A DNA stretch of 40,766 nucleotides from sequence record OZ035791.1; one strand, written 5' to 3'. A program made the position numbers and the translations under genes. Source of the stretch: Kagunavirus LF7074P3. Below the pieces are notes generated by a model. That model saw nothing but the letters and a program-made list of their open reading frames with translations. It was not told the DNA's origin and did not search any database. Each line of letters starts with the position of its first letter. The first letter of the stretch is position 1. Of this stretch, positions 3,899 through 40,031 are shown one piece after another.

Positions 3899-4359
3899 TG
3901 ATGGGCTTTTTCAAAGTAACTGACGTACCGTCTCGTCGCGTAGTCCAGTACGCCCGCGTGTCTGGCTCTGGCGAGAACGTGGTGTTTATTGAAGACGAAA
4001 GTGTACTCGGAACACCAGTGGACGATATGCCGTTTGCGGACAAGACCGGTATTGCGCTGCCAGCGGCAGGTATGCTTTATGAGATTCAGTACCTGGCGGA
4101 TGCTGGTGATGTGTATTTCTCCGTACAACCGCAGGACGCTGAACTGGCAGACGGCAGCGCAAATATCGCTGTCGAAGTTAAGGCGGGCAAAGCACCATAT
4201 GCGCTGACCTGGTACAAAGACGGGAAGGAAGTGGTAAACGCCCCGGAAGAGGCTCTGTCTCTGACGGTTAACGCAGTTGGTGAATACTTCGTTAAAGTCA
4301 CTGATGCCGATGGTATAGAGGCCGTAAGTAAAGCAGCGAAGGTTACTAAGCCAGAATAA
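3898..4359 (+). CDS. structural protein with Ig-like C-terminal domain (putative head decoration)
   Basis: 153-aa ORF; C-terminal beta-rich segment ...PYALTWYKDGKEVVN...EYFVKVTDADGIE resembles Ig-like fold; followed by strong terminator. Confidence 0.45.
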   Translation: MMGFFKVTDVPSRRVVQYARVSGSGENVVFIEDESVLGTPVDDMPFADKTGIALPAAGMLYEIQYLADAGDVYFSVQPQDAELADGSANIAVEVKAGKAPYALTWYKDGKEVVNAPEEALSLTVNAVGEYFVKVTDADGIEAVSKAAKVTKPE

Positions 4360-4363
4360 ACTG

Positions 4364-4385
4364 AAGCCCCGAAAGGGGCTTTTTA
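4364..4385 (+). terminator. rho-independent terminator
   Basis: AGCCCC-GAAA-GGGGCT hairpin + TTTTT immediately after 3898..4359. Confidence 0.8.
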
Positions 4386-4448
4386 GTGCCTGTGATTATT
4401 CCAGTTATTCCACTCAATTGTAAATGTTGGAATAAACTATTCGAATAG

Positions 4449-4477
4449 TTGACTTTTCACCAAAAATGTGCTAAGCT
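4449..4477 (+). promoter_or_regulatory. sigma70-like promoter (TTGACT-N17-TAAGCT with TGn extended -10)
   Basis: TTGACT 4449-4454, 17-nt spacer, TGcTAAGCT; abutted upstream by perfect palindrome CTATTCGAATAG (4437-4448). Confidence 0.5.
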
Positions 4478-4654
4478 CCACCTGAGCTTGTGAAGTATGA
4501 ACAAGCGACCGCGGCGCGGGCAGGTAACGGAGCGGGACGTAAGTCCTGAGTGTAGTTACGCTGACGCGTTCGGAAGGGCCATACTCTATTGCTTGTGTAA
4601 AAAGTAACTGGTTTACTGAGATTACGCCGTTTCTATGTTTAAATGATAAGGACT

Positions 4655-4681
4655 AGCGCCCCGCTTTAAGGCGGGGCTTTA
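4655..4681 (+). terminator. weak terminator / attenuator hairpin
   Basis: GCCCCGC-TTTAAG-GCGGGGC hairpin followed by only TTT; lies 20 nt before Rz start. Confidence 0.45.
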
Positions 4682-4701
4682 CTTATCGAGAAAGGGGAAA
4701 C

Positions 4702-5088
4702 ATGAATCTTAAAGCAACTGTCGTAGCGGGAGCATGTTTCATCATCCTGGCTTACGCACACGGCATCTACCAGTATCGCAGCGGCTGGAACGGAGGCCGG
4801 GCGAATCTCGTTTCGCAGCAACAGCAGAAAGCACAGGCTGAGTTAGCTAAGAAAACACAACGGCAGCGGCAGGATGAATCGAAGGCCGCCGCCGCTGATA
4901 ACGAAGGCAAGACGAAATCAGAGGTAATCACCCGTGAAGTCGTTAAGTACATTAAAACGCCTGGCCGCAGCGTGTGCACTTTTGACCCTGAGCGCGTGCA
5001 GCTCAAGTCCCGCGCCGTCGCAAACGCCAATTCCATCCCCGGATACGACGATGATGCAGCCGCCGTGCAAACTGGCACTGCCAAGTAA
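4702..5088 (+). CDS. Rz: Rz-like inner-membrane spanin (i-spanin)
   Basis: 128-aa ORF: N-terminal hydrophobic TMD (VVAGACFIILAYA), charged coiled-coil-like periplasmic domain; contains overlapping lipoprotein ORF in +1 frame; RBS AAAGGGG. Confidence 0.75.
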   Translation: MNLKATVVAGACFIILAYAHGIYQYRSGWNGGRANLVSQQQQKAQAELAKKTQRQRQDESKAAAADNEGKTKSEVITREVVKYIKTPGRSVCTFDPERVQLKSRAVANANSIPGYDDDAAAVQTGTAK

Positions 5089-5197
5089 CGACGCGGACGA
5101 GGATTTAGCTATTGACGTCCAGAACGCAGAATGTGTACGGCAACTGAGACTTAAAGTGTTCATGTTGCAGGATTACGTGAGGAATATTCTGGAATAG
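4934..5197 (+). CDS. Rz1: Rz1-like outer-membrane lipoprotein spanin (o-spanin)
   Basis: 87-aa ORF (GTG start) beginning inside Rz and extending past its stop; signal peptide with lipobox LSAC, Pro-rich mature region SPAPSQTPIPSP. Confidence 0.8.
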   Translation: MKSLSTLKRLAAACALLTLSACSSSPAPSQTPIPSPDTTMMQPPCKLALPSNDADEDLAIDVQNAECVRQLRLKVFMLQDYVRNILE

Positions 5198-5226
5198 TTG
5201 CCTTGTATGTTGGAATAATTTATTCT
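5198..5226 (+). promoter_or_regulatory. candidate promoter for scaffold/capsid genes (TTGCCT-N17-TATTCT)
   Basis: Hexamers with 17-nt spacer; overlaps 19-bp repeat ATGTTGGAATAAtttATTC (5207-5225). Confidence 0.3.
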
Positions 5227-5276
5227 TGACATGTAAATCCGGGTGGCCCGGATTCCAACGTCCAGGGGACATACTG

Positions 5277-5903
5277 ATGAGCGAAGAAGTGAAAGACGAA
5301 ACTATCGAACAACAAGAGACTAAGACCACGTTTACCAAAGAAGAAGTTGACGCGCTGGTATCCGGTCTTAAAGCTAACAACGAGAAACTCTTGTCTGAAA
5401 AGAAAGCTGCCGCCGCTGCCGCGAAAGAAGCCGCAGATGCGAAGCTGAAAGCCGAACAGGAACGCGCAAAACAGAACGGCGAACTTGAGGCATTCGAGAA
5501 AACGTTGCGCAGTCAGTATGAGCCAGTACTCGCCGAGAAAGACGGTAAGATTAGCAAAATGGCTGAGCGTATCCTCGGCGCAGAACGTAAATCAGTTATC
5601 AGCCAGTTGTCTGGCATGTTGATTGATGCGAGCGCAGCGGATATTATCGCTATGATGGTCAAGACCGAATTTGACGGCGATGACGTTGTGACCAAGTTCA
5701 CAGGTGCAGATGGTAATGTCATCACCACCGACGCAGAGCAATTTAAAAAGTATCTGCGTGAGCACAAAGCATTTTCGCATCTGATTAAAGCAGATGCAGC
5801 AACCGGCGGCGGGGCTTCCGGTAACAAAAATTCTACTGGCGGGGCCGGTGGTGCGGACGTAATCCAGCAAAAACTTAACGCCAAATACGGCAAACGAGGA
5901 TAA
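5277..5903 (+). CDS. head scaffolding protein (putative)
   Basis: ATG 5277 with RBS AGGGGA; Ala/Glu/Lys-rich coiled-coil-like 208-aa protein directly upstream of capsid gene. Confidence 0.6.
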   Translation: MSEEVKDETIEQQETKTTFTKEEVDALVSGLKANNEKLLSEKKAAAAAAKEAADAKLKAEQERAKQNGELEAFEKTLRSQYEPVLAEKDGKISKMAERILGAERKSVISQLSGMLIDASAADIIAMMVKTEFDGDDVVTKFTGADGNVITTDAEQFKKYLREHKAFSHLIKADAATGGGASGNKNSTGGAGGADVIQQKLNAKYGKRG

Positions 5904-6935: not shown

Positions 6936-7103
6936 GTGGAAATTAAATACGTACCAATGCCAATTACCATCGAGCAGAAGCGCGAGTATAACCGTCAGGG
7001 GTTCCGTGTGGTAGATGCTCGTTTCGCACCAGAAGGCACCGTGGTAGAATCGGCTAAAGAAGAGACACCACGCCGCCAGCGCCGGGCGAAATCAGAGGAA
7101 TAA
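6936..7103 (+). CDS. small hypothetical protein (55 aa)
   Basis: GTG start 8 nt after AGGAG; uninterrupted 55 codons; not in ORF track (below 60 aa). Confidence 0.4.
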   Translation: MEIKYVPMPITIEQKREYNRQGFRVVDARFAPEGTVVESAKEETPRRQRRAKSEE

Positions 7104-7106
7104 TTT

Positions 7107-7619
7107 ATGCCGCTAATCGTGGAAGATGGGTCGATAGTACCTGATGCCGACAGTTACATTAGTCTGACTGACGCCCGCGCGTTAGCGGCTAATTATGGTC
7201 TGGAGTTACCGGCAGACGATACTGCCGCAGAGGTGGCCTTACGTAACGGTGCTACTTATGTCGGGCTTGCAGAACCGCAGATGTGCGGTCGTCGGGTATC
7301 CGCTGAACAGTCTCTGGCGTATCCACGCACCGGTGTTACGTTGAATGGTTTCCCCGTAGCGAACAATGTCATTCCGAAGCAGGTGATTCTTGCGCAGGTA
7401 ATCGCCGCTGCTACATATGGCGCAGGTACTGAGGTGCGGGCTAACTCTGACGGACGTTCGGTACAGACCGAGCGCGTAGAGGGCGCAGTAACCGTCACCT
7501 ACTTCAATAACGGCAACAGTGGTTCTACAACCGCGATTACCGCCGCTGACGACGCCTTACGCCCGTTACTGTGTGGTGGTCTTAACAATGGCTTCTCGTT
7601 TAATGTGTACCGGGGTTAA
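7107..7619 (+). CDS. hypothetical structural protein (head-tail connector region)
   Basis: 170-aa ORF with RBS GAGGA; tightly packed in late operon. Confidence 0.5.
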   Translation: MPLIVEDGSIVPDADSYISLTDARALAANYGLELPADDTAAEVALRNGATYVGLAEPQMCGRRVSAEQSLAYPRTGVTLNGFPVANNVIPKQVILAQVIAAATYGAGTEVRANSDGRSVQTERVEGAVTVTYFNNGNSGSTTAITAADDALRPLLCGGLNNGFSFNVYRG

Positions 7620-11152: not shown

Positions 11153-11637
11153 TACTTATCACTCCCGTGCGATTTTAAGTGTGTAGAGTTCCCGTTACAG
11201 TCGTATTCAGTAACCGCGTGAGTGGTTATACCGAGGCCACGGAAATGCTTTATTACCGCTGGCGAGTCGTCGAATGCGCACAAGATTCTTTCCAGCCCGA
11301 TAGTACGTAGCACCTCTTCCTTAATTACGATGTCTTTTCTGTTGTCGTGTTTGCTGCGCATGATTAACTGATAAAATTCGACGCGGTGGCGCTGCAACCA
11401 CATTCTGGTTTCTTTTTCCGCGTCATCACTACGGCCTGTTAAGATAATAACGGCATAGCGACGATTAAGGGCGTTACACAGTTCGATGTTATCTTTAATG
11501 GGTGCATCGTCTTTGCACGCCATGTTAAATGGTTTCCACGCCCAGGTTTCGCCGTAGTTATCTTTCGGCAGCAGGTGTAAACGATGAGCACCATCTGCCA
11601 ATGTCCCGTCTAAATCGAAAATCACAATATCTTTCAT
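11152..11637 (-). CDS. HAD-family phosphatase, T4 Pnk 3'-phosphatase-like
   Basis: 161-aa ORF; N-terminal DLDGTL (DxDGT nucleophile motif), later TGRSDD, RKDIVIKEEV and AFDDSP segments paralleling T4 polynucleotide kinase phosphatase domain (recall-based). Confidence 0.65.
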   Translation of the reverse strand: MKDIVIFDLDGTLADGAHRLHLLPKDNYGETWAWKPFNMACKDDAPIKDNIELCNALNRRYAVIILTGRSDDAEKETRMWLQRHRVEFYQLIMRSKHDNRKDIVIKEEVLRTIGLERILCAFDDSPAVIKHFRGLGITTHAVTEYDCNGNSTHLKSHGSDK

Positions 11638-12770
11638 CCAAGCATCTCCGGTGAAATAGTTAAACGTGCGACCTCGCCATATTCGGCGCTATAAGTAATT
11701 ACGTTTGCACTGCGGCCCGACATCCACCCACCGCGGGAGGCATATGCATCTTTAGCCGCGAGAGTGCGGTGTTGCTCAACAATCATGTTACGGCTTTCTA
11801 CAATCTTTTGGTGGTGCAGGTGACCCACGTGGGCGTAGCTGTAAACACTCTCTCCGAACGCTTTGCGGAACTTGGCGATCATAACCGGTTCGATAGCGTC
11901 GAATCGTGCTTTATGCCCATGATGGAAGAACAGCGTCGTTTTGCCGTGTTGCACCATCTTGTAAACATCCGGCGACGTATCGACGAACACACGCGGCTCA
12001 TTGTCGTACAGCGTACTAAACATCTCAGCTAACCAAATCATTCCGCTTTCGTCGTGGTTACCTTGCACGATAAGCAAGCGAACATTTTTATGTTTAACGA
12101 GAGCCATATCAATGACACGGCGGACCATACGAATCATGTAGCGTACAAGTTTCTGATAGCGGGTGTCAGCGTCAAGAACATGGCCACTTGCGGGTGTAAC
12201 GGCATCCAGACTATCGAAGTGCGCGAAGTCACCTAGCAGGTTAATAACTCCTGTTCCCGCATCTGGCGCTTTCTGAAACGCTGCGTCGAACCATCGAGAG
12301 AACAGGTCTTCTGCGATTTTCATATCCCAGTCGTCGCCGCTCTCGTCGGCCCATGCCAGCATACCGAGATGAAAATCAGATACAGTGTAAAGATTGAGTA
12401 GCTTGTCGTCACGTTTGGTGCGCACGGCTTTAACCGGCGCAACGGGGGTAATCTCTGACTTCATGCCCTCAATTACGGCTTTCATAGCCTCTAACTGTTT
12501 CTCTTTATCCGGCTCGGAAATCACCCACGTCATCACCTCTTCGCCATTAGCCTTTACGCAAGCGGATATTCTTTTAGCAGAGAACCCTTCCGCTATGCGT
12601 TTGGATATTACTGGGTCGTTCCCGTGACCTATGCCCTTCTTGGCTAATCGTGCTTTACGGATACGAATTACGCGGTCTGAGATGCCGTATTTACGGGCGA
12701 TGTCTATATTCCTCATCCCGGCGCTCAATTCTTCCTGTAACTGTTCGTCGGTTATTTTCTTCTGGGCCAT
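11634..12770 (-). CDS. metallophosphoesterase with N-terminal HTH domain
   Basis: Calcineurin-like motifs SDFH, GDFAHFD, GNHDE, HHGH, GHLHH; N-terminal HTH-like ...IDIARKYGISDRVIRIRK...; ATG 12770 chosen (RBS GAGGAAG); track ORF extends to 12875. Confidence 0.65.
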   Translation of the reverse strand: MAQKKITDEQLQEELSAGMRNIDIARKYGISDRVIRIRKARLAKKGIGHGNDPVISKRIAEGFSAKRISACVKANGEEVMTWVISEPDKEKQLEAMKAVIEGMKSEITPVAPVKAVRTKRDDKLLNLYTVSDFHLGMLAWADESGDDWDMKIAEDLFSRWFDAAFQKAPDAGTGVINLLGDFAHFDSLDAVTPASGHVLDADTRYQKLVRYMIRMVRRVIDMALVKHKNVRLLIVQGNHDESGMIWLAEMFSTLYDNEPRVFVDTSPDVYKMVQHGKTTLFFHHGHKARFDAIEPVMIAKFRKAFGESVYSYAHVGHLHHQKIVESRNMIVEQHRTLAAKDAYASRGGWMSGRSANVITYSAEYGEVARLTISPEMLG

Positions 12771-13000: not shown

Positions 13001-13030
13001 TTTAAACCCCTTCATTGTTGGTGTAAGTGA

Positions 13031-31232: not shown

Positions 31233-31448
31233 ATGCAACCATCTGAACTAGGCATCCGTGTAGAGCAACGCCGTAAAGAACTCGGTATCTCCCAGCGCCA
31301 TCTGGCTGTCCTGGCCGGTGTTTCCCAAGGCGCGATTAACCAGCTGGCACTTGGAGTAACTCAGGACGTCCGCCCGGCGACGCTGTTTAAACTGGCGGAA
31401 GTGCTGGAAGTAGACGCCAAGTGGCTGGCGTTCGGTGAAGGGGCTTAA
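31233..31448 (+). CDS. Cro/CI-type (XRE-family) HTH DNA-binding protein
   Basis: 71 aa; ...ELGISQRHLAVLAGVSQGAINQL... HTH; RBS AGGAG; transcribed opposite to surrounding leftward genes. Confidence 0.75.
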   Translation: MQPSELGIRVEQRRKELGISQRHLAVLAGVSQGAINQLALGVTQDVRPATLFKLAEVLEVDAKWLAFGEGA

Positions 31449-33869: not shown

Positions 33870-34158
33870 ACCGTTTAGCCAACTCTTCCAGCAAATTTTT
33901 ATACTCTTCAAAATATTCCTCGACCAAATCATCGCCGAAATAGAAGTCGATATACTCGAGATTATCTCTTACGTTAAGCGACGCAGACATGGTGCTTAGT
34001 TGGCGTAAGCTAATTAGCTTCATTTCTGTTTCTACACAGAAAGGCCGGTAGGTATCGAGGTGGCAAGAGATGTTGAAGCATAAAGCGAACTCTCCCGCCA
34101 CGGAGTGAACCATATACACTTCGTTTTCTGCTTTATTGTGGAAAATTACACCTTTCAT
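33868..34158 (-). CDS. hypothetical protein
   Basis: 96-aa ORF, ATGA overlap with upstream HTH gene. Confidence 0.45.
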   Translation of the reverse strand: MKGVIFHNKAENEVYMVHSVAGEFALCFNISCHLDTYRPFCVETEMKLISLRQLSTMSASLNVRDNLEYIDFYFGDDLVEEYFEEYKNLLEELAKR

Positions 34159-34337
34159 TTCACATTCTCCTTAATCCATTCTTCAACTTTATTACGGTCA
34201 AATGTACCTGGTAAACGGCGACCCATAACCTTAATACAACAATCAGGGAATTTACCACTGCGCAACCAGTTATTAATTGTCTGACGTGTTACCCCAATAC
34301 GCTCGGCTACTTCATTCTGGGTCATGTAATGTTGCAT
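34155..34337 (-). CDS. small HTH DNA-binding protein (AlpA/excisionase-like fold)
   Basis: 60 aa from ATG 34337 (RBS AGGAG); ...MTQNEVAERIGVTRQTINNWL...; track ORF to 34451 judged an extension across promoter DNA. Confidence 0.55.
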   Translation of the reverse strand: MQHYMTQNEVAERIGVTRQTINNWLRSGKFPDCCIKVMGRRLPGTFDRNKVEEWIKENVK

Positions 34338-34368
34338 TTTTATATCTCCTGTTTGTTTGGTGAAGCTG

Positions 34369-34397
34369 AGTATAGGATAGCGGGAATGTAAAAGCAA
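34369..34397 (-). promoter_or_regulatory. leftward early promoter TTGCTT-N17-TATACT
   Basis: Minus-strand hexamers with 17-nt spacer, about 25 nt upstream of ATG 34337. Confidence 0.5.
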
Positions 34398-34434
34398 CCA
34401 ATCCCTGCAATATTTAATCTTTACAAAAAAGTTA

Positions 34435-34464
34435 TTGAAAGTTCTTGACACATGTTTGTATAAT
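34435..34464 (+). promoter_or_regulatory. rightward promoter TTGAAA-N18-TATAAT
   Basis: Consensus -10 TATAAT at 34459-34464; divergent from leftward promoter; no ORF for about 350 nt downstream. Confidence 0.5.
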
Positions 34465-36063: not shown

Positions 36064-36612
36064 ATGAAAGATTATAGCGAAGTAACTTTAGGTGAGTTGC
36101 AGGACGAGTACGAAGATATGCTCTACCCGTTCATCTGCGACGGGGACTACAACGGCGTCTATAACGGGGTGAGCGAAGACCTGGCGCATGAGGTGCAGAT
36201 TAAGGAGTTGCGGGAAGACAACATTAAGAAATCTGAGCACATATCGCACCTAACAGGGCAAGTTAAGGAGTTGCGTCTGGCATTGGCCAAGGCTACTGGT
36301 GACGTGGAGGCATACAAACTTATCCGCAAAGGTGCGTACGGTTCGGAGCAATCTGGTTGCCGAAAAGAAGATACGCAGGAATGTGACCACAATTGGATTA
36401 TCGCTCCAGGATTGTTTATTGCCGAAGGCCACAAGGACAACGTGCCCGGTAGCCTGTTTTGCTGCGAATGCGGCAAGCGTGAGTGGGACGGACTTGAGTA
36501 TGGGCCAACAGCCTGTACACGGGAGTGCAAACACAGTTTCTATTATGTAATAACAGATGGCTCCGCGCCGTTCGGTACGAAAGTATGTAAAACGTGCGGG
36601 GAATACTTCTGA
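36064..36612 (+). CDS. Cys-rich (zinc-ribbon-like) hypothetical protein
   Basis: 182 aa; N-terminal coiled-coil-like region, C-terminal CxxC...CxxC clusters. Confidence 0.5.
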   Translation: MKDYSEVTLGELQDEYEDMLYPFICDGDYNGVYNGVSEDLAHEVQIKELREDNIKKSEHISHLTGQVKELRLALAKATGDVEAYKLIRKGAYGSEQSGCRKEDTQECDHNWIIAPGLFIAEGHKDNVPGSLFCCECGKREWDGLEYGPTACTRECKHSFYYVITDGSAPFGTKVCKTCGEYF

Positions 36613-36815
36613 TGACCAGCATCTTATTTATCTGGGTGCTGTCCACGGGTCAGATGCATCTGGCGGCATCAGAAACGTTTTACTCGATGGAGGCGTGCCA
36701 GTCAGCGGCACGCGCCGCAGAGAACGCGCACTTCCTGTTTCAGGGTGACAAGCCTAACGATTCAGAGGTACGCGCTATCTGCTCACCTAAACGTATTGGT
36801 AAACAGGAGAAATAA
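36612..36815 (+). CDS. small secreted/membrane-anchored protein
   Basis: 67 aa from ATG 36612 (overlaps upstream stop); N-terminal hydrophobic signal-like segment MTSILFIWVLSTGQMHLAAS. Confidence 0.45.
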   Translation: MTSILFIWVLSTGQMHLAASETFYSMEACQSAARAAENAHFLFQGDKPNDSEVRAICSPKRIGKQEK

Positions 36816-39627: not shown

Positions 39628-39798
39628 ATGTTCAGTGACATCAACGCAGCAATCGAAGAAGCAATCTGGCGCAGATACAACGGCGAGCAACAACGGCACT
39701 TCTGCCTGGTGCAACGTGGAAACATGATTGCCGTAGTGCAGGACCGCGATAACAAATATCCGAATGCGATGTGGACAACGAGGAATTTTGTAGGATGA
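39628..39798 (+). CDS. hypothetical small protein (56 aa)
   Basis: Uninterrupted frame, coupled to next ORF by ATGA. Confidence 0.35.
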   Translation: MFSDINAAIEEAIWRRYNGEQQRHFCLVQRGNMIAVVQDRDNKYPNAMWTTRNFVG

Positions 39799-40031
39799 TT
39801 ACCAGCATTCCGAACCTGATTAAAGAATACGGCACGATGGCGGAGACATGCCGACAAACCGGCATCAACGAAATGACGATTGCCAAGTACCGCAACGACG
39901 TGAACTGCGAGCGCCACGTAATTTATAACAACCGTCTTATGACGCACGTTAAGACAAGCCCGGTGTTATTCACGCGCCGTGGTATCACTAAAACTGAGCA
40001 ACGTATTGCTAAAGAGGAGAGCGGAGAATGA
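39795..40031 (+). CDS. hypothetical protein with HTH-like segment
   Basis: 78 aa from ATG 39795; ...TCRQTGINEMTIAKYRN... Confidence 0.4.
   Translation: MITSIPNLIKEYGTMAETCRQTGINEMTIAKYRNDVNCERHVIYNNRLMTHVKTSPVLFTRRGITKTEQRIAKEESGE

Follow-up and report, generated by a model that had tools for sequence, protein, structure and literature searches.

What do the GGAATA repeats that flank the spanin genes of Kagunavirus LF7074P3 do, and which protein might read them? The sequence analysed is a Kagunavirus (Guernseyvirinae) genome window of 40,766 nucleotides (nt; record OZ035791.1). The region of the finding, about 1 kb long, holds two clusters of the hexamer GGAATA, one upstream of the spanin gene Rz and one at the end of the overlapping spanin gene Rz1, each accompanied by a predicted promoter (P1 and P2, respectively). 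The gene order is portal, head-morphogenesis and Hoc-like decoration genes (the last ending at 4359), a gap of 342 base pairs (bp), Rz/Rz1, a gap of 80 bp, scaffold and major capsid. With a probability of roughly 55%, the GGAATA sites are putative operators for a dimeric regulator acting on these two sigma-70-type promoters in the head/lysis region of virulent Guernseyvirinae. From the sites themselves, their conservation, their fixed geometry and their promoter context, all of which can be read directly from the sequences, we infer that a protein would bind, in which direction it would regulate and which protein it might be. An element of this kind is well known, and an operator-type system built on GGAATA is not yet described for this phage group. 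A sequence-only reading of the window had spoken of a late-gene control point, which is a reasonable description: the signals are of a non-coding type and lie on promoters inside the head/lysis region.

The clusters are well above chance, as judged from counts against expectation and against shuffled sequences. Three or more GGAATA hexamers within 60 bp occur in two clusters in the window, compared with 0.0 across 200 shuffles, and GGAATA-N3-5-GGAATA was found twice (0.02 expected). The 19-bp repeat described in the sequence-only reading was confirmed at 4424-4442 and 5207-5225, with 17 of 19 positions identical and no other copy in the window; the 19-mer pattern with up to three mismatches was observed 2 times, against 0.07 expected. 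The hexamer totals 29 against 16.2 expected, 6 of the 29 being within the two clusters. The same cannot be said of two units described in the sequence-only reading. GAATAG alone, proposed as the half-site, is not enriched in the window (21 versus 16.9 expected), and its copy at 4443-4448 is specific to Kagunavirus. Perfect 12-bp palindromes number 6 in the window against about 10 expected, which is not above chance. For comparison, about 140 homologous loci were assembled from annotated phage records and IMG/VR contigs, and seven complete genomes were compared: the window, K1G, SETP3, VSiP and phiEap-2, in which the GGAATA palindromes are present, and Pantoea AH01 and Serratia Smarc3, in which they are absent. 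Over the 1-kb region, identity is 100% with Kagunavirus LF7074P1, 95-99% with many K1-type Escherichia phages and 70-86% with Salmonella Jerseyviruses.

Cluster 1 begins with the direct repeat TATTCC-agt-TATTCC, which amounts to two minus-strand GGAATAA half-sites 9 bp apart, with a 3-nt gap that is fixed in relatives. Its sequence had been given correctly in the sequence-only reading, with a position (4398-4412) one base off; it lies at 4397-4411. The palindrome IR1, GGAATAA-A-CTATTCG, follows at 4429-4443, with both arms conserved and the centre (4436) variable. The perfect 12-bp palindrome CTATTCGAATAG reported at 4437-4448, adjoining TTGACT at 4449-4454, is indeed present. It consists of the right arm of IR1 and the Kagunavirus-specific GAATAG, and it is lost as a unit outside Kagunavirus, where the corresponding position reads TATTCAAAAAG in Jerseyvirus and TATTCCAAAAG in the phiEap-2 type. 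IR1 itself is GGAATActtTATTC in Jerseyvirus and a perfect 15-bp (7-1-7) palindrome, GGAATAAATTATTCC, in the phiEap-2 type. Promoter P1, on the plus strand, is predicted from the -35 hexamer TTGACT (4449-4454; 5/6 consensus matches), a 17-nt spacer and the extended -10 TGcTAAGCT (TG at 4469-4470, -10 at 4472-4477), the hexamer TAAGCT matching at 3/6 positions, with A2, T6 and the upstream TG; its start is predicted at about 4484.

A relaxed pattern retrieved this arrangement from 91 loci as 47 distinct sequences, belonging to Kagunavirus, Jerseyvirus and a third lineage (phiEap-2, L112 and relatives). The layout is TATTCC-3-TATTCC, 17 nt, GGAATA-3-TATTC, 6 nt, T(T/A/G)GA(C/T)T, 17 nt, TA(A/C)(G/C)CT, and the spacings 3/17/3/6/17 are kept in 42 of the 47. 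IR1 is always 17 (±1) nt 3' of the direct repeat and 6 nt 5' of the P1 -35 (47/47). Between lineages, the segment joining direct repeat and palindrome, the palindrome centre and the P1 spacer differ in sequence but are constant in length. The -35 of P1 is degraded in many relatives (TAGACT, TGGACT), with the geometry invariant and the spacers unrelated among the 47 sequences.

Cluster 2 consists of GGAATAttctGGAATAG at 5181-5197 (plus strand), confirmed as reported, and the palindrome IR2, GGAATAA-T-TTATTCT, at 5212-5226. The former contains two half-sites 10 bp apart, at about -52 to -47 and -42 to -36 of promoter P2, and covers the six last codons of Rz1 and its stop. P2, also on the plus strand, is predicted from TTGCCT (5198-5203), N17 and TATTCT (5221-5226), matches the consensus at 8/12 positions and would start at about 5233. 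IR2 covers the P2 spacer and -10, with its centre at about -14, and, with 5207-5211 added, makes up the second copy of the 19-bp repeat. About 60 Guernseyvirinae contigs contain IR2, each a single time and always over the P2 spacer and -10. Kagunavirus and Jerseyvirus share the identical block AGGAATATTCTGGAATAGTTGCCTT-N7-9-GGAATAATTTATTCTTG, and the L056/phiEap-2 type has an additional, inverted copy of the palindrome across the P2 -35, so that two copies of the 14-mer flank this hexamer, 33 bp apart. P2 has positional equivalents in relatives that lack GGAATA: TTGCAT-N17-TATTCT (Pantoea AH01-like), TTGCAC-N17-TATTCT, TTGCGC-N17-TAACAT and TTGCCC-N17-TATATT (Serratia Smarc3). A P2-type promoter was found in five divergent lineages, each time 9-10 nt before a hairpin, with a conserved ribosome-binding block after it. 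Cluster 2 is superimposed on a promoter that exists in relatives without GGAATA, and from these alignments the GGAATA elements are an overlay on an older promoter in one clade. A second -35 was also implied beside repeat copy 2, TTGACA at 5226-5231. This hexamer lies just 3' of the conserved -10 TATTCT, is followed by a -10 in no clade, reads TTGTTA in Jerseyvirus and falls within TATTCTTGACA, a conserved stretch 3' of the true -10; it was rejected as a -35.

One cluster overlaps coding sequence, and GAATAG alone and the 12-bp palindrome are unenriched, so that chance combined with coding constraint on the Rz1 C-terminus was a possible explanation, the coding constraint being named as such in the sequence-only reading. 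To this the cluster enrichment and the conserved architecture described above are opposed, as are two further results. A set of 57 distinct Rz1-adjacent sequences was anchored on a conserved ribosome-binding region that is independent of the motif, and was chosen by a coding criterion; both coding hexamers are present in 53 of them. In these 53 distinct sequences, the six last Rz1 codons show zero third-position variation, whereas the preceding 34 codons vary there in about 13 sequences each. Furthermore, in Cornellvirus-type genomes (VSiP, St162, PSDA-2 and several contigs) a minus-strand gene is inserted between Rz1 and scaffold, and GGAATAGTTGCCTT-N7-GGAATAATTTATTCTTGACA persists there as wholly intergenic DNA; the GGAATAG...GGAATAATTTATTC module of these genomes is intergenic yet conserved. 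Coding constraint does not explain cluster 2, because the synonymous sites of Rz1 are frozen and the element is intergenic in Cornellvirus. The chance-and-coding explanation is regarded as refuted.

Taken across clades, the conserved recognition unit is, as predicted from the alignments, the half-site GGAATA(A) together with a 13-15 bp palindrome GGAATAA-N-TTATTCY. Palindrome variants (GGAATA-aac/ctt/aat/att-TATTC) keep both arms, with the centre free. In both clusters the centre of the direct repeat (4397-4411; 5181-5197) is 31-32 bp upstream of the palindrome centre, or about three helical turns. Dyad symmetry, fixed helical positions and the overlay on an older promoter thus have the anatomy of operator sites for a cooperatively binding dimer. 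An RNA-level role of the palindromes was rejected: the 5-bp A/U stem is too weak, and the cluster 1 repeats are inverted, an orientation that argues for recognition of double-stranded DNA. Three side observations concern the same unit. phiEap-2 contains 43 GGAATA hexamers, compared with 16-29 in relatives, four near-perfect palindromes and additional TATTCC/TATTCT half-sites within the P1 spacer, and is the richest natural test case of the motif system. A possible third site, GGAATAATTTATGCC at 7097-7111, differs from the 15-bp palindrome by one mismatch and has a conserved counterpart in SETP3 (9229); it spans the stop of a small open reading frame and the head-tail adaptor ATG, and may merely reflect ribosome-binding-site, stop and start constraint. 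Finally, the flanks of the two Kagunavirus palindromes, 4419-4435 and 5202-5218 (TTGTA(aa)TGTTGGAATAA), are more alike mutually than to their Jerseyvirus orthologues, which hints at concerted evolution or an extended site.

How would such sites act? In each cluster, two half-sites would form the palindrome, and two more would form the direct repeat about three helical turns upstream. At P2, which would serve scaffold and major capsid, a dimer on the palindrome would compete with RNA polymerase; placed over the spacer and -10, it would block the polymerase and so act as a repressor. At P1, the palindrome lies 6 bp 5' of a weak -35 and equidistant from a leftward promoter-like element, its centre (4436) being about -48 from both the predicted P1 start and the predicted leftward start; this arrangement may mean activation or divergent control. 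The transcript of P1 would open with a structured leader, about 200 nt long, and a leaky terminator would close this leader immediately 5' of Rz/Rz1. On account of this leader and terminator arrangement, the sites would set the amount of spanin and capsid message made from internal promoters.

The leftward element is also the starting point of the main rival to the operator reading, namely that the hexamers are themselves promoter elements, with TGGAATAAT as an extended -10 (TGnTATAAT-like), cluster 1 as a divergent promoter pair and cluster 2 as a tandem stack of rightward -10s boosting the capsid operon; no regulator would be needed. On the minus strand, TTTACA (4424-4419), N18 and TGgAATAAT (4403-4395) overlap the direct repeat and score 10/12 with TG in a consensus scan, among the best of the first 20 kb and the best locally. 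The direct repeats are oriented like their nearest promoters (leftward in cluster 1, rightward in cluster 2), the leftward element of phiEap-2 is 55 nt upstream of a small minus-strand gene (a moron), and of 26 half-sites, 14 have a T before GG and 17 have a T at the -7-equivalent. All this is as the promoter-element explanation would have it. However, orthologous sites conserve the second G, a position left free as the 'n' of TGn; in place of the critical -7 T, all clades have C in 4406-4411 and Kagunavirus has A in 4429-4436; and three clades preserve the right arm of IR1, which has no -10 role on the plus strand. Promoters need neither dyad symmetry nor fixed distances of 17 and 6 nt, and moron-bearing Kagunaviruses have the leftward -10 destroyed but TATTCC retained. 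On balance, it is unlikely that promoter elements explain the sites by themselves. In the window, the leftward element points directly into the terminator of the Hoc-like gene, and it is conserved in moron-less Kagunavirus and in Jerseyvirus.

Morons also bear on a further explanation, that the repeats are module-boundary or recombination sequences marking moron insertion and not transcription signals. Minus-strand morons lie exactly at the upstream edge of TATTCC-agt-TATTCC (fFiEco03, RP180, SE479) and of GGAATAG (VSiP, St162, PSDA-2), and in phiEap-2 (11515-11863) a 24-nt inverted copy of the direct repeat flanks terminator and moron. These are nonetheless places where insertion beside a promoter module is expected anyway, because intergenic DNA is there. 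The sites are equally conserved in moron-less genomes, and the fixed distances run to promoter hexamers, not to junctions, which makes the boundary explanation highly improbable. Among the minus-strand genes found at module edges are one that resembles a sliding-clamp gene, others for small membrane proteins, and HNH/methylase genes. A replication origin with iterons was considered and rejected: the only sign changes of the GC skew are near 23 kb and 34 kb, with none at 4-5 kb.

The sequence-only reading had connected the clusters to a second motif family, ATAG-N4-CTATTCA, suggesting that the same regulator binds both through GAATAG half-sites in a different geometry. The family itself is real (24 matches at up to two mismatches against 8 expected) and was previously reported in Kagunavirus as the PHIRE 'phage promoter' motif tgAATAGTa-ccTATTat-T (PMC9825357). 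Its core form AATAG-N4-CTATT is present 6 times in the window, 6 in K1G, 5 in SETP3, 0 in VSiP, 1 in phiEap-2, 0 in AH01 and 1 in Smarc3, and sits in strong early-type promoters (TTGCAC-N17-TACTAT, TTGACA-N17-TATAGT). Sites of about 15-18 bp were noted at 13028, 25227, 28854, 31145, 31190, 34774 and 36021, in two registers relative to the -35; the motif thus behaves as an operator, not as a plain promoter consensus. Its presence across the seven genomes matches that of an HTH_17 gene (34155-34451) exactly.

In support of a common regulator, the core GAATA is shared by both families, the cluster 1 stretch 4445-4459 (ATAGTTGACTTTTCA) has one mismatch to ATAG-N4-CTATTCA, and GAATAGTTGACTT (4443-4455) and GAATAGTTGCCTT (5192-5204) are alike at 12 of 13 positions. 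The resemblance is confined to the Kagunavirus-specific stretch 4443-4459; the equivalent in cluster 2, ATAGTTGCCTTGTAT, has four mismatches, and AATAG-N4-CTATT is not conserved at the orthologous cluster 1 position, where SETP3 and Jersey have AAAAAGTAGACTTCTAT. GAATAG 4443-4448 is missing from the orthologous sites of Jerseyvirus and the phiEap-2 type, and the GGAATA arrangement, GAATA-N3-TATTC, is 3 bp tighter. VSiP and phiEap-2, with no copy and one copy of the AATAG motif, respectively, keep the GGAATA palindromes and lack the HTH_17 gene with which the AATAG family co-occurs; that family, already on record as the PHIRE motif, belongs to strong early-type promoters. Dyad spacing, location and genome distribution all differ, so a shared regulator finds no support and is very unlikely. 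These genomes carry, as far as motif distributions can tell, two separable motif systems and not a single operator family.

Which protein might bind the GGAATA palindromes? Pfam scans of 20 small open reading frames yielded three proteins of DNA-binding type: an XRE HTH_3 protein (31233-31448), the HTH_17 excisionase-like protein (34155-34451) and a NinH-like protein (39771-40031). The XRE protein is present in 7/7 genomes, and its recognition helix is as variable within the palindrome-bearing set as outside it. The HTH_17 gene is missing from VSiP and phiEap-2, and its distribution fits the AATAG-N4-CTATT family. The NinH-family gene (plus strand, 86 amino acids) matches PF06322 with an E-value of 3.5e-5, under the curated cut-off, and hhalign gave a probability of 97% and an E-value of 1e-10 against lambda NinH; a PDB sequence search with the NinH-like profile returned nothing significant. 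In a phylogenetic profile of 290 open reading frames of at least 40 amino acids across the seven genomes, only two were real genes in 5/5 palindrome-bearing and 0/2 palindrome-less genomes, the NinH-like gene and a 73-amino-acid membrane-like gene. The NinH-like gene is therefore the only DNA-binding-type gene matching the palindrome distribution in these seven genomes. The 73-amino-acid protein (36594-36815; phrog_3766) has a hydrophobic N-terminus and a clade-restricted distribution like that of the NinH-like gene and the palindromes. NinH of lambda forms Fis-like homodimers, which bend the DNA that they bind; its preferred site is a palindromic 15-bp motif, G-N13-C (PMC7166090). The NinH-family phage protein is the first candidate for the binder of the GGAATA palindromes, a tentative assignment with the odds against it. 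More specifically, the NinH-like protein might be a dedicated sequence-specific regulator of GGAATAA-N-TTATTCC, whose occupancy of the P2 -10 and of the region upstream of P1 would shift late transcription from capsid to the leader/spanin message; this extended version is improbable as it stands.

Several points weigh against the operator reading and against its candidate binder. P1 and P2 both fall below the 9/12 threshold of the consensus scan, and they are predicted because they are conserved, not because of consensus strength. No transcript map or start-site data were found in the literature, and one Kagunavirus RNA-seq study offers only coarse early, middle and late classes. Repression of a capsid promoter would have no obvious logic in a lytic cycle. 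Because several hexamers can also be read as extended -10-like elements (TGGAATAAT), their conservation could in part reflect promoter rather than operator function. With regard to the binder, the NinH-like protein has Glu at the position of the DNA-contacting Arg85 of Fis, and the window palindromes are G-N11-C, not the G-N13-C of lambda NinH. The Fis/NinH 15-bp core, with G at -7 and C at +7, is absent from the window copies GGAATAAACTATTCG and GGAATAATTTATTCT and was found only in GGAATAAATTATTCC of phiEap-2. Such palindromes are missing from a Klebsiella phage whose NinH homologue is 47% identical, a case that is treated as neutral because the recognition helix of that homologue differs. 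The phylogenetic profile comprises seven genomes, and both negatives are outgroups on other host genera.

It follows from the last point that a host factor fits the profile equally well. A transcription factor or nucleoid protein of Escherichia, Salmonella and Klebsiella would then bind the palindromes, and the phage would exploit it. Palindrome-bearing phages infect Escherichia, Salmonella, Enterobacter/Klebsiella aerogenes and Raoultella, and palindrome-less ones infect Serratia and Pantoea; moreover, the half-site is identical across phage genera whose own helix-turn-helix proteins have diverged to 38-51% identity. On the other hand, no host regulator is known to have a GGAATA-palindrome consensus: the motifs of ArgR, IclR/AllR, RcsAB, Fur, Fis, CRP, DnaA, OxyR and MetR each depart from it in their spacing or in key bases. 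These sites have A at -4 and T at +4, which Fis disfavours. A host protein as the reader of the palindromes is improbable.

The features that surround the putative operators are also conserved. Rz (4702-5088) and the overlapping Rz1 (4934-5197), both on the plus strand, were assigned from their open reading frames and from i-/o-spanin annotation in relatives, and the Rz1 translation contains the lipobox LSAC. The scaffold gene starts at ATG 5277 (plus strand) and is followed by the major capsid gene. After the Hoc-like gene, a terminator hairpin at 4364-4385, terminator-like on the minus strand and reading GCCCCGAAAGGGGC then TTTTT on the plus strand, is kept in relatives and forms the upstream limit of cluster 1.

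The roughly 200 nt between P1 and Rz contain no conserved open reading frame. At 4484-4657 (plus strand), folding energy and covariation point to a structured non-coding leader or small RNA transcribed from P1. Its minimum free energy is -71.3 kcal/mol (z -2.3; -3.5 for the SETP3 homologue), and a consensus from 44 distinct Kagunavirus and Jerseyvirus sequences has 22 pairs that are 98.6% paired, 7 of them with compensatory changes, compared with 31-49% pairing in slid controls. The elements of the fold are the closing helix CCG-GGYGC/GCRUUCGG, inner hairpins and, at 4658-4677, a terminator hairpin. Rfam contained no credible family for the leader, either at the gathering threshold over the whole window or in E-value mode over 4360-5300. 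A 36-amino-acid reading frame at 4497-4607, annotated as a hypothetical protein in Sciku, SE479 and BPS11Q3, was rejected as an unlikely gene: an 11-nt deletion in Jerseyvirus takes away its start codon, and the region evolves as paired RNA. A related core, GACGCCCUAGCG..., is found in Serratia Smarc3, and Cornellvirus has a different but analogous leader. The leader may be a small RNA, a 5' untranslated region or a cis-acting antitermination element.

The leader is closed by an intrinsic-terminator-like hairpin (4658-4681, plus strand) that ends 20 nt before the Rz start codon. It has the GC-rich hairpin and T-tract of a terminator, with 8 pairs, 7 of them GC, and the tail TTTACTTATC, and its stem shows compensatory changes at alignment columns 183/194 and 184/193. 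The T-tract is short and interrupted, so read-through is likely. At the predicted 5' end of the P2 transcript, a second hairpin, AATCCGGG-TGG-CCCGGATT (5236-5254, plus strand), precedes the conserved ribosome-binding region and the scaffold ATG. Compensatory stem variants (AT/AT, CA/TG, AG/CT, TA/TA) were observed across four lineages, and loci L129-L134 have a different hairpin at this position. It is probably an mRNA-stabilising 5' stem-loop of the scaffold/capsid message.

How do these sites compare with known systems? The operators of lambda OR/OL (CI/Cro), P22 and 434 are likewise dyad sites of about 15 bp on or beside the -35 and -10, with two or more sites of each control region facing the same side of the helix and with the half-site reused at two promoters. 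Unlike those phages, the present one is virulent, without an integrase or repressor module; it has only two control regions, both within head/lysis genes, and each palindrome is paired with a direct repeat of half-sites. The sites bound by Fis and lambda NinH (PMC7166090) are similar in that a NinH-family gene is present in the phage with a distribution matching the palindromes, in homodimer-type symmetry, and in that the perfect copies are 15 bp with G and C ends and an A/T centre. They differ in that the window copies end G...G and G...T, with a G-N11-C core, and in that the GGAATA sites are highly specific, not degenerate. The activator sites of Mu Mor and C and of P2 Ogr/P4 Delta recall the weak P1 -35 (TAGACT/TGGACT in many relatives) with a dyad immediately upstream. 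The P1 site centre at about -48 differs from theirs, the second site overlaps a -10, pointing to repression, and no homologues of these activators were seen among the small open reading frames scanned.

The arrays of P2 Cox, 186 Apl and lambda Xis also consist of short boxes about one helical turn apart, in either orientation, beside promoters. Those proteins are excisionase-type helix-turn-helix proteins, whereas the HTH_17 protein here is missing from the site-bearing VSiP and phiEap-2. The PHIRE motif tgAATAGTa-ccTATTat-T (PMC9825357) has the GAATA core, the same genomes and an association with promoters in common with the GGAATA sites, and differs in dyad spacing, location (early/replication promoters), phylogenetic distribution and likely binder. 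Finally, the order of promoter, non-coding RNA of about 200 nt, terminator, and then lysis (Rz/Rz1) and head genes resembles the lambda PR'-6S RNA-tR' unit; the present unit differs by the weak T-tract of its terminator and by an RNA with a conserved multi-helix fold of its own. Pfam scans of the 20 small open reading frames, made without a dedicated search for such a protein, gave no Q-like antiterminator, and a qut-type pause element was not identified either.

What would these sites mean for the phage family? Phages of the Guernseyvirinae (Kagunavirus, Jerseyvirus, Cornellvirus) are widely isolated for therapy and biocontrol, and the timing of their late transcription is not known to have been described. 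The present analysis supplies two predicted promoters, a putative 13-15 bp operator with auxiliary half-sites, a leader RNA, a 5' hairpin of the capsid message and a candidate regulator. If the NinH-like protein does shift late transcription from capsid to the leader/spanin message, the sites would constitute a late lysis-timing switch. The link to NinH, if true, would also provide a first physiological function for a widespread orphan phage family that has no known role in lambda.

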